A stretch of DNA of 62,575 nt, filler included, from Kipferlia bialata (lineage: Eukaryota), in NCBI GenBank assembly GCA_003568945.1. It is 5 parts of 5 records of this genome, joined end to end, with 100 filler letters (N's around TTAATTAATTAA, not from the genome) between each part and the next. Parts side by side here need not be neighbours in the genome. Positions count along the whole stretch, not along the records: positions 54,697 to 62,575 come from BDIP01000829.1; 4 more parts are not named here. One strand, given 5' to 3'. The notes under the pieces were generated by a model, which worked only from the letters and a program-made list of their open reading frames with translations, was not told the origin of the DNA and made no database searches. Below are positions 55,254 through 57,538 of the stretch, piece by piece. Each line of letters starts with the position of its first letter. Positions within the stretch are counted from its first letter, which is position 1. A program made the position numbers and the translations under genes.

Positions 55254-56639
55254 CTAGTGCTGGTTCGTATCATCACTGACCATGGGGTTCAGAGTCGGCA
55301 CTGGCGGTCAGTTTTAACAACATACATATAATAATACAAATACATACATACATATCCTGTAAGCTACCTGGCATGACGTATGGCTCAACCGGTCCAAGGC
55401 TAGGGGTCATCGGGAGGGAGACACCTATTGTAAGGGTATACGCTCAACTATATACTCAATGGATCCTCGTTATAGTAGTATATATATCAACACATGTATA
55501 TACACTACCAAATTCATCATAGTGGGATAACTGTGTTCCTATCTACTATGTATAGTACATAAATATAAATATATATATAATATAATATAATACAAATATA
55601 TGTACACGAACCTGGTAGGGCTACATTGAACACCCCGTCTGCTGAGACTGAGTTGGCAGGTACCACTGTTGGGACATGGACTGGAGTTAGAACGTGAATA
55701 TTGTAACATATATATTCCACAGACCAACACATATCTGATACATATACATAGGTACCACTGTTTGCACATGGACTGGGATGAGAGCACACTCTAAATAGTA
55801 CAGTGGAGAGTATTGTACGATCAGCTAATGTAGAATAAGGTGAAATGCAAAAAAGACAACAAACTGGGGACATGGACTGGGATGAGAGTATAGTAGACAA
55901 CCAACACCAATTATACAACATAACAGTGAGAGGGGAAAAGAGAGAGAGAAGGAGAAGAGAAGAGCCAACACACTGGGGACATGGACTGGAATAAGAGCCA
56001 AACATACACCCACCACCATATATACAACATAACATAGAGAAGAAAAGATATACAGAGAGAAACAGAAGAGAAAGACTGATTTGGCGGGTACCACTGAAGG
56101 GACATGGACTGAGATGATTACGGATACACGGCATTGGTATGATAATGAAACACTGAAATAGATAGATGTCTAACCTTCTTCCAATTTCTTTCCCATCTCA
56201 ATCTCCTCTCTGGCCGCTTTCTCCACTCTCTCCCTCTCAATTCTCTCTCTCTCCCTCTCCTTTGCCTCGGCCTTACGCTTCCGTGCAGGGGCAATATTCT
56301 ATGGATAAGGCAGTACATTAATGTATTTGACTTACGTGAATGTGTAATGATAATAATAGGAAAGAGAAGCTTCAGAGCGGGGGCAATCTGCTAGGGGTTA
56401 GACATATAGTACTACACACGTCTCTCATCTCAATATAGAGATTTGAGATTGAACATTAATATCGGTATATATAGAGAGGCAGATACTACCACGGCACTAG
56501 ATTACTATCATGGTTAAGACAGAACTCCGTATCAGGGTTTTTCCCCTATACATATCTATATATATATACGAACCTTGACATAGATCATTACTATCCCGAT
56601 GCACATAATGACTCCAGCAGATACACCCAGGGGATATAT

Positions 56640-56670
<31 letters not shown>

Positions 56671-57538
56671 AATGTATGTATATATATGTGTATACCTTGA
56701 TGTATAGCATGAACAGACCAATGCACATGAGGACTCCAGCAGATACACCCAGGGTGATCCACAGCCACATCTTGCTGGGGACTGGGGGTGAGTAGATATA
56801 TATATTTGTATATGGCTAATTAGTAGATAGATATGTATATAGCATCTAGTGAATAATGAAAGAGATCCACAGCCACATCTTGCTAGGGACTGGGGGTCAG
56901 TATATATGTAGTATACTGGTTAATAGAGAAAGAGAGGTCTTGGGGATCATATCCACACACACACACATATATATATATTGAATTAATGTAATATAGAGTG
57001 TCAGCAGTCAAAAGGGAAGGAATCCACATCCCCCTCTTGCTGGGGACGGCGGGTGAGTATGAATAGTATTCTGGTAAACACAGAAGAAGAGGAATCACTT
57101 AAATGATGTGGATACGTAGTATCTAGTGTAAGGGATCCACATCCACAATTTGCAGGGGACAGGGGGTAACTAGAGCTTTAGTGACCATTGATAGGGATGT
57201 GAAATCGCTACACTAACACATACCTGTGATATACAGTTCAAAGTACTTGGTGCTGTCTGTGCATGAGGCATCGATGGCCACACTGGCATACTGGAGTGAG
57301 TTAATTAGATATGTATATATACATAATTATATGGTGAATATATGTGTGTGGGCAACAATATATATATATACATGCATGAGGCATCAATGGCCACACTGGC
57401 ATACTGACATTAGGTACACACACAAGAGAGAGAGAGAGAGAGAGACAGACAGAGAGAGACACAGAGAGAGAGGTAGAAATGTGGCATCAATGGCCACACT
57501 GGCATACTGACATTAGGGTATGTTGAAGATATATGTAA

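Follow-up and report, generated by a model that had tools for sequence, protein, structure and literature searches.

Several described systems come close to the arrangement reported here. Minisatellite arrays undergo conversion-like transfer between alleles and unequal crossover, and are marked by polar arrays, mosaic units, short duplicated anchors and units originating from another allele. Tandem mutually exclusive exons form a second class, in which protein constraint would act on both copies as they diverge. Internal or tandem gene duplication, reportedly put forward by Gao and Lynch in 2009 as a source of intron change, is said to involve local direct duplication of exon sequence together with a splice boundary. 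In intron 7 of the human F7 gene, a minisatellite has been described whose repeats extend across the exon-intron boundary; downstream of the authentic donor lie silent but functional pseudo-donors and, in the portion of that report drawn on here, the most upstream donor is the one used (PMC1557585). For Daphnia neointrons, the corresponding portion of PMC4202315 describes direct repeats of 4-12 bp at the far end of the new intron, staggered breaks and a link to NHEJ.

The locus investigated here belongs to gene KIPB_004043 of Kipferlia bialata, in which introns hold partial copies of adjacent exons, here called echoes. Kipferlia is free-living and related to Giardia. As judged from the DNA alone, the echo of exon 13 is a real half-copy of the 3' end of this exon and, on balance, a mosaic that probably arose by out-of-register recombination between diverged alleles. 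It is a typical member of a gene-wide phenomenon and not a one-off, though it is among the most diverged echoes.

The echo of exon 13 and its host gene

The window, i.e. the whole stretch of DNA that was analysed (62,575 nucleotides, filler included), consists of five contigs joined by N spacers, and the two genes investigated, KIPB_004043 and KIPB_004021, need not be neighbours. The N gaps contain twelve-base linkers (14465-14476, 25645-25656, 40146-40157 and 54641-54652); the linker at 54641 reads TTAATTAATTAA. Both gene models are database predictions. The focal exon was assigned to KIPB_004043 of K. bialata (402 aa) by a letter-for-letter match over 28 residues. The features are as follows.

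42605..50662, plus strand: gene model KIPB_004021, on the preceding contig, with 33 echoes around 11 of the 16 exons analysed
55257..62374, minus strand: gene model KIPB_004043, with 17 GT-AG exons mapped, 31 echoes and an echo in 12 of 16 internal introns
57224..57290, minus strand: exon 12 of KIPB_004043, with three 5' echoes upstream (57624, 57509 and 57406) of two different acceptor types
57134..57159, minus strand: 5' echo of exon 13, third in order from the exon, matching nt 1-26 with 4 differences, AG lost
57022..57046, minus strand: 5' echo of exon 13, second in order from the exon, matching nt 1-25 with 3 differences, AG lost
56864..56889, minus strand: the 5' echo closest to exon 13, matching nt 1-26 with 1 difference and carrying an AG of its own and the branch motif CTGAC (CTCAC in the live acceptor)
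56696..56781, minus strand: exon 13 of KIPB_004043, 86 nt, flanked by AG and GT, coding for a C-terminal hydrophobic, predicted transmembrane segment
56633..56695, minus strand: TA-rich spacer beginning with the annotated donor GTATAC, without AG and without recognisable homology to the intron following the echo
56574..56632, minus strand: echo of the 3' half of exon 13 (nt 28-86); the donor GTTCGT adjoins it downstream at 56573-56568
56610..56632, minus strand: head of the echo, 23 nt, identical to exon positions 56754-56732, a putative crossover or conversion anchor
56574..56609, minus strand: diverged tail of the echo, 36 nt, with 12 differences, none at codon position 2, and no indel
56175..56298, minus strand: exon 14 of KIPB_004043, coding for a charged, predicted cytoplasmic segment

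The KIPB_004043 protein showed two hydrophobic peaks, and the hydropathy peak at residue 282-283 fell within the segment encoded by exon 13. A hydrophobic N-terminus is followed by a middle domain, a hydrophobic segment and a charged tail, an order that is APD1-4-like by ESM Atlas features (0.89) and is taken as a lead only. Pfam gave nothing significant for the proteins of KIPB_004043 or KIPB_004021, and the identification of KIPB_004043 as a membrane E3 ligase of the APD1-4 type was not supported, as no match to PF16040 or PF16041 was obtained up to E=10 and the model contains no RING. Elsewhere in the window, a single-exon ORF of 521 aa (51403-52968, minus strand) gave weak kinase and phosphotransferase Pfam matches under the curated cut-offs. 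A ferredoxin-nitroreductase fusion (26893-27618, minus strand) and a 4Fe-4S protein (33928-34386, plus strand), both typical of anaerobes, were also observed.

The codons begin at 56752 in the exon and at 56630 in the echo on the minus strand, 122 nt apart, and each run of 57 nt is followed by GT. The echo, a 59-nt repeat with its own donor, is placed 63 nt into an intron of 397 nt; it comprises exon nt 28-86 only, is not a full-length copy and lacks an acceptor consisting of YAG and a branch motif. The earlier note had counted 12 substitutions, seven at codon position 3, five at position 1 and none at position 2, without indels, and these counts and its translations were confirmed on the minus strand. 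Likewise, no AG acceptor precedes the echo, the spacer being devoid of any AG. The first seven codons are indeed identical, but the clean stretch is 23 nt long (CC and the seven codons) and not 21 nt. Of the two alternative reading frames, one is interrupted by stops within the echo, while several unlike replacements result in the other. When the spacer was compared with the intron following the echo, 22 of 30 control introns scored as high.

The echo donor GTTCGT is identical to the annotated donor hexamer of exon 15, differs from the live GTATAC at three of four positions and scored below the live donor (0.7 and 1.7, respectively). An annotated KIPB_004043 donor hexamer, together with the signals retained on echoes in general, would fit an echo in current use, i.e. 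one kept by selection because it serves as an alternative donor, offers a cryptic acceptor within it or acts as a stepping stone when the intron is removed in several steps. The internal AGs, ending at nt 19 and 40 of the 57 nt, both keep the frame of exon 12 by phase. Splicing at the echo donor would, however, retain 122 nt, with a frameshift and three stops as the result. A cryptic acceptor, which the earlier note had envisaged, was not found: the first internal AG is GAG, compared with YAG in 32/32 annotated acceptors, and inspection revealed no CTNAY or YTNAY motif in range of either AG. Loss of AG in 6/37 of the 5' echoes also speaks against current use, which is regarded as highly improbable.

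DNA contigs of run X1 matched the window exactly at 55200-56627 (depth 426), 56694-56946 (depth 374) and 56988-57300 (depth 380); contigs of other loci that matched by chance had depths of 374-465. These contigs indicate that the echo is present at ordinary depth, although X1 may be the assembly's source data and hence not independent. The portion of PMC5874029 drawn on here describes a short-read SPAdes assembly with 124,912 introns and k-mer peaks suggesting diploidy. A diploid genome assembled from short reads, the possible identity of X1 with the source data and the lack of any run X1 contig bridging the TA run that separates exon and echo would all suit an assembly artefact in which two haplotypes were joined in tandem. 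Against this, a contig of 1941 nt at depth 426 carries both the echo and its TA-side junction, and the contigs of the exon and of the upstream region have the depths of 374 and 380 given above; such an artefact is given next to no credence. A joint at 56568-56785 was treated as spurious, its 21-letter side adjoining TA repeats. A further run, X2, presumed to be RNA, contributed repeat-like pieces in one comparison and 0 records in another, neither of which bears on expression.

The divergence of the tail (33%) is high for alleles and would be compatible with capture from a paralogous gene. However, KIPB_004043 was the sole protein match among 245 candidates and among 7996 scored, and only the contigs of the exon itself and of the echo fitted exon 13 at 80% or more, in one sample in which only copies sharing the head are detectable. 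Capture from a paralog is accordingly given very little credence. A search for a donor copy in JGI metagenomes yielded 148 pattern matches, none of which was confirmed, and 0 matches in a second scan.

Codon pattern and mosaic structure

The echo is mosaic in structure, its head being young and its tail old. The sequence of 0/23 differences followed by 12/36 had P=0.0005, or P=0.0013 given that the first five sites match, and the identity of the head is beyond chance (P about 0.001). The complete lack of changes at codon position 2 had P=0.008 if differences are spread evenly; with G/C taken to be twice as mutable, purely neutral decay was rejected for this echo (P=0.006). Judged by the spectrum of the other echoes, the probability rose to P=0.047 (0.044 for the tail only), and the chance that one or more of the five strongly diverged echoes would lack position-2 changes was P=0.32. 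The codon pattern was therefore rejected as proof by itself. Hydrophobic replacements, to which the earlier note had also drawn attention, were seen but are not independent evidence, being largely due to T at position 2: 8 of the 12 tail codons are NTN, in which first-position changes always stay hydrophobic. A or T occupied 10 of the 12 second positions of the tail.

In the other echoes (the counts exclude the focal echo, and each site was counted once), differences at exon G/C sites were even over codon positions 1, 2 and 3 (21/150, 16/144 and 26/198; P=0.55), and differences at exon A/T sites showed a deficit at position 2 (21/136, 8/139 and 19/83; P=0.0007). This combination is exactly what a neutral echo decaying to A/T beside a constrained exon would produce. 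Because half of the divergence between exon and echo arises on the constrained exon side, and because the other echoes share the position-2 deficit, the codon evidence was insufficient for the claim that the echo belongs to a once-functional or elsewhere-functional version of the exon. A once-functional piece joined at a crossover-like anchor is still the most likely reading, while an elsewhere-functional copy was not found in the searches described above.

A serious rival emerges from the same counts, namely a local duplicate with gene conversion. An old tandem duplication across the donor on the same chromosome would have left a neutral echo drifting A/T-ward beside a constrained exon, and its head would have been renewed either by conversion or when a younger copy collapsed onto an older one. 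The position-blind differences at G/C sites and the avoidance of position 2 at A/T sites argue for such a duplication. The same is true of the 12 focal differences, all of which are swaps between G/C and A/T (seven towards A/T in the echo and five in the exon), and of the lack of position-2 changes, which had P=0.12 if six of the 12 are neutral. Homology of the flanks would have to be hidden by fast churn of TA-rich DNA. Both the duplication and the hiding of its flanks are regarded as possible but doubtful.

Echoes around the exons of two genes

Every exon of KIPB_004043 and KIPB_004021 was aligned to both adjacent introns. Echoes were found around 24 of the 33 exons, and these had been overlooked in the earlier note, as had the three 5' echoes upstream of exon 13. 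The 64 echoes comprised 36 5' halves, 26 3' halves and 2 whole copies. All 5' halves lay upstream (36/36), all 3' halves lay downstream (26/26), and all 62 halves were in direct orientation; each unit consisted of 10-59 nt of exon and long diverged spacers. Control searches gave 4/196 for unrelated exon-intron pairs at score 26 and 2/66 for inverted searches at score 28. Spurious 5' extensions were trimmed by hand in two alignments (focal echo and exon 1). The stretch at 43991-44032 was counted as an echo despite its exon status in the database model of KIPB_004021, and two exon boundaries of this gene were reset, their 7 echoes being excluded from the codon tests.

In a self-comparison of the window, 82 local repeats were detected, of which 80 lie beyond 40 kb. 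An annotation-free scan for repeats past acceptor-like sites gave 22/62 and 18/41 in two TA-rich contigs, versus 0/77, 1/36 and 4/61 in the other three, and echo richness tracked TA-run density over the five contigs. The four echo-free introns of KIPB_004043 were its shortest (67-187 nt). The echo pattern is gene-wide, yet not uniform. Divergence was lower in the nearest echoes than in the most distant ones (13:4; P=0.049), indels occurred in 7/64 echoes, and some contained nonsense changes or stops; these observations, too, would be expected of duplication on the same chromosome.

The catalogue also bears on a decayed mutually exclusive exon, i.e. a whole duplicate of exon 13 that was spliced as an alternative, diverged under constraint and was later deprived of its acceptor and first 27 nt by a deletion. 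Such a history would leave the donor intact and the tail constrained, and KIPB_004021 does contain two whole exon copies. Strictly polar halves in 62 of 64 echoes are, however, hard to reconcile with it, as deletion would not preferentially leave 3' halves on the downstream side and 5' halves on the upstream side, and the clean head of 23 nt would demand an additional conversion; this origin is considered very unlikely. Even taken together, the explanations other than allelic capture and a local duplicate are unlikely. Nested replacement, in which an old exon is split and a new one lies between its halves, was hinted at by exon 13, where the 5' echoes stop at nt 25-26 and the 3' echo begins at nt 28. 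In the test on the 11 exons with echoes of both kinds, it was rejected (P=0.34 for the median gap and P=0.21 for 7/11 within 13 nt).

Individual echoes showed further variation. The 3' echo of exon 11 (57882-57839, minus strand) contained mainly first- and third-position changes, a stop and an insertion of 1 nt, and represents an older, decaying example of such an echo. In exon 12 and its three 5' echoes (57624-57373, minus strand), the third position of one Ile codon varied (ATA, ATT, ATT and ATC) and the two acceptor types were interleaved. The 5' and 3' echoes of one exon overlapped by 12-13 nt at 58607-58571 and 58359-58310 (minus strand) and at 43991-44025 and 44281-44468 (plus strand), and both overlapping pairs shared a base unlike the live exon. 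In KIPB_004021, at 43991-44032 and 48810-49184 (plus strand), a 5' echo is modelled as an exon and two boundaries conflict with the echo evidence, so that the predicted protein may be wrong. Two complete or nearly complete exon duplicates were observed at 44879-44907 and 49221-49269 (plus strand); the first, flanked by both AG and GT, might serve as an alternative exon. In a third gene (40202-41110, minus strand), 5' echoes of one exon start were preceded by differing branch-type motifs (CTTAC, CTATT and CTAAT) before AG. Degenerate short-motif repeats with TA-rich spacers at 53200-53900 (plus strand) are probably a further echo array.

The intron flanks of the echoes diverged from the live junction about three times more than the exon parts. 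In 5' echoes the exon part differed by 9.6%, versus 30% (edits) at acceptor positions -15 to -3, and in 3' echoes by 8.5%, versus 33/104 at donor positions +3 to +6. By our own reasoning, a duplicate on the same chromosome would give a ratio of flank to exon-part divergence below 2. Equal divergence of flank and exon part, as expected of tandem junction duplication, holds for a minority of echoes and not for the focal echo. Flanks scoring above all control introns were found in 6/35 of the nearest echoes, in which 66/337 mismatches in the flank compared with 2/141 in the exon part. In-cis copying also occurs, as indicated by flanks with at most 3 edits in 16/37 echoes. Many echo acceptors were as distant from the live acceptor as unrelated acceptors (mean 5.8 edits), and duplication on the same chromosome leaves unexplained why near-identical exon parts stand beside unrelated yet complete acceptors.

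Splice signals were widely retained on the echoes. AG was kept in 31/37 echo acceptors and GT in 25/26 echo donors, and the CTNAY branch motif was present in 25/37 echo acceptors, 23/32 annotated acceptors and 62/490 other intronic AGs. Among the 22 acceptors with at least 4 edits, the motif was kept in 16, versus 8.5 expected with half of the edits neutral (pooled P=0.0005). Echo donor scores lay above the neutral model (P=0.036), as did AG retention (P=0.049, pooled); acceptor tests omit one copy and donor tests two. Sibling echoes are not independent and the branch motif was chosen after inspection of the data; with one echo per exon, the motif was found in 8/13, versus 4.9 expected (P=0.07), and a looser motif gave P=0.16. 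The free middle position of the motif differed in 22/32 pairs and its T and A in 15/64, a mismatch of 0.23 that is not clearly under half of the general flank rate (about 0.48). In ten echoes from 8 exons, selected for discordance, the exon part showed 10/243 differences and the flank 54/130 edits, with AG in 10/10 and the branch motif in 8/10. Retention of signals beyond the prediction of neutral decay supports the reading that echoes were once functional. The excess of retained branch motifs, AGs and donors, together with the two interleaved acceptor types before exon 12, is not explained by duplication on the same chromosome.

Probable capture from diverged alleles and known systems

Polarity, the mosaic head, diverged flanks with intact splice signals and presence in DNA contigs were all observed and favour capture from diverged alleles, for which we infer the following mechanism. 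The head of 23 nt is identical to the live exon, and the 36-nt tail with its donor would likely stem from a formerly spliced allele. Breaks in or near TA-rich introns would be repaired by homology, which the exons alone would offer between alleles with diverged introns. A short duplicate of the exon end might cross over with the exon of the other allele inside the anchor; by a second route, a broken end might copy the donor allele beyond its splice site and rejoin the original with an overlap of 23 nt. Selection would retain only layouts that leave one whole exon, which would account for the strict polarity of the echoes. Lacking a partner splice site, a half-exon would presumably be passed over in splicing and would decay towards A/T, and new copies would tend to adjoin the exon. 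Either of the two tails may have been the incoming one. Counting against allelic capture are the failure to find a donor allele or paralog in the searches above, the focal codon pattern (P=0.047, and 0.32 after selection), the evenness at G/C sites, the weaker tests after collapsing siblings and the 16/37 near-identical flanks, and faster mutation of low-complexity intron DNA may play a part.

In the sections of PMC8516963 drawn on here, metamonads are described as being without NHEJ proteins, and all examined Fornicata as having lost Rad51A and retained two Dmc1; mismatched joints and heteroduplex are reported to be stabilised by Dmc1 in the corresponding part of PMC6719624. The repair gene set of this lineage fits allelic capture and would link it to the loss of NHEJ and Rad51A. 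More tentatively, mismatch-tolerant repair by Dmc1 in TA-rich Kipferlia genes might repeatedly capture working junctions of diverged alleles, and introns might expand into ordered stacks of retired splice junctions, an archive of alleles and protein variants; we put this forward as a possibility.

If allelic capture is true, one genome keeps earlier functional versions of its exons and splice sites; allele divergence, recombination between alleles and splice-site turnover would become readable for a protist without population data, and the loss of NHEJ and Rad51A in fornicates would be tied to a visible genome scar. Echoes would also be natural experiments on how a reduced spliceosome chooses among several intact donors and acceptors. 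They can also mislead gene prediction, as in the KIPB_004021 model, which takes a 5' echo as an exon. The interest lies mainly in the gene-wide phenomenon and less in the focal echo alone.

The main text of the K. bialata genome paper contains 0 occurrences of 'duplicat', 'allel' or 'heterozyg' (PMC5874029), and the portion of PMC6679479 drawn on here covers Kipferlia only with searches for spliceosomal proteins and snRNA. In the open literature searched, no description of dense polar half-exon arrays in Kipferlia was found, which holds under the rival reading of a local duplicate as well. Intron growth or splice-site turnover by junction capture was likewise not found described.

Compared with tandem mutually exclusive exons, the focal echo differs in lacking an acceptor and the first 27 nt. 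With internal gene duplication, the Kipferlia echoes share local direct copies of exons including the splice boundary; existing introns grow in Kipferlia, however, whereas none is newly made, and the flanks often look foreign and not copied. In the Daphnia neointrons, an exon end is likewise repeated inside the adjacent intron and attributed to break repair (PMC4202315, in the portion drawn on here). The Kipferlia echoes are longer and have their own GT or AG, and metamonads are described as lacking NHEJ proteins (PMC8516963, in the sections drawn on here). An origin as a Daphnia-type neointron was rejected for the focal echo, which is not a repeat of 4-12 bp but one of 59 nt that has a donor and starts 63 nt into its intron of 397 nt. 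Polar arrays, mosaic units and short duplicated anchors are common to the echoes and to minisatellite arrays, but the unit in Kipferlia is a splice junction subject to a filter for intact exons, and its donor allele is putative. Like the F7 minisatellite, the Kipferlia echoes repeat across a splice boundary in direct orientation with donor halves downstream, although the choice of splice site among them is predicted from sequence. F7, as described in the portion of PMC1557585 drawn on here, is a single locus with identical units of 37 bp, whereas the Kipferlia echoes surround 24/33 exons in two genes and occur on both the donor and the acceptor side.
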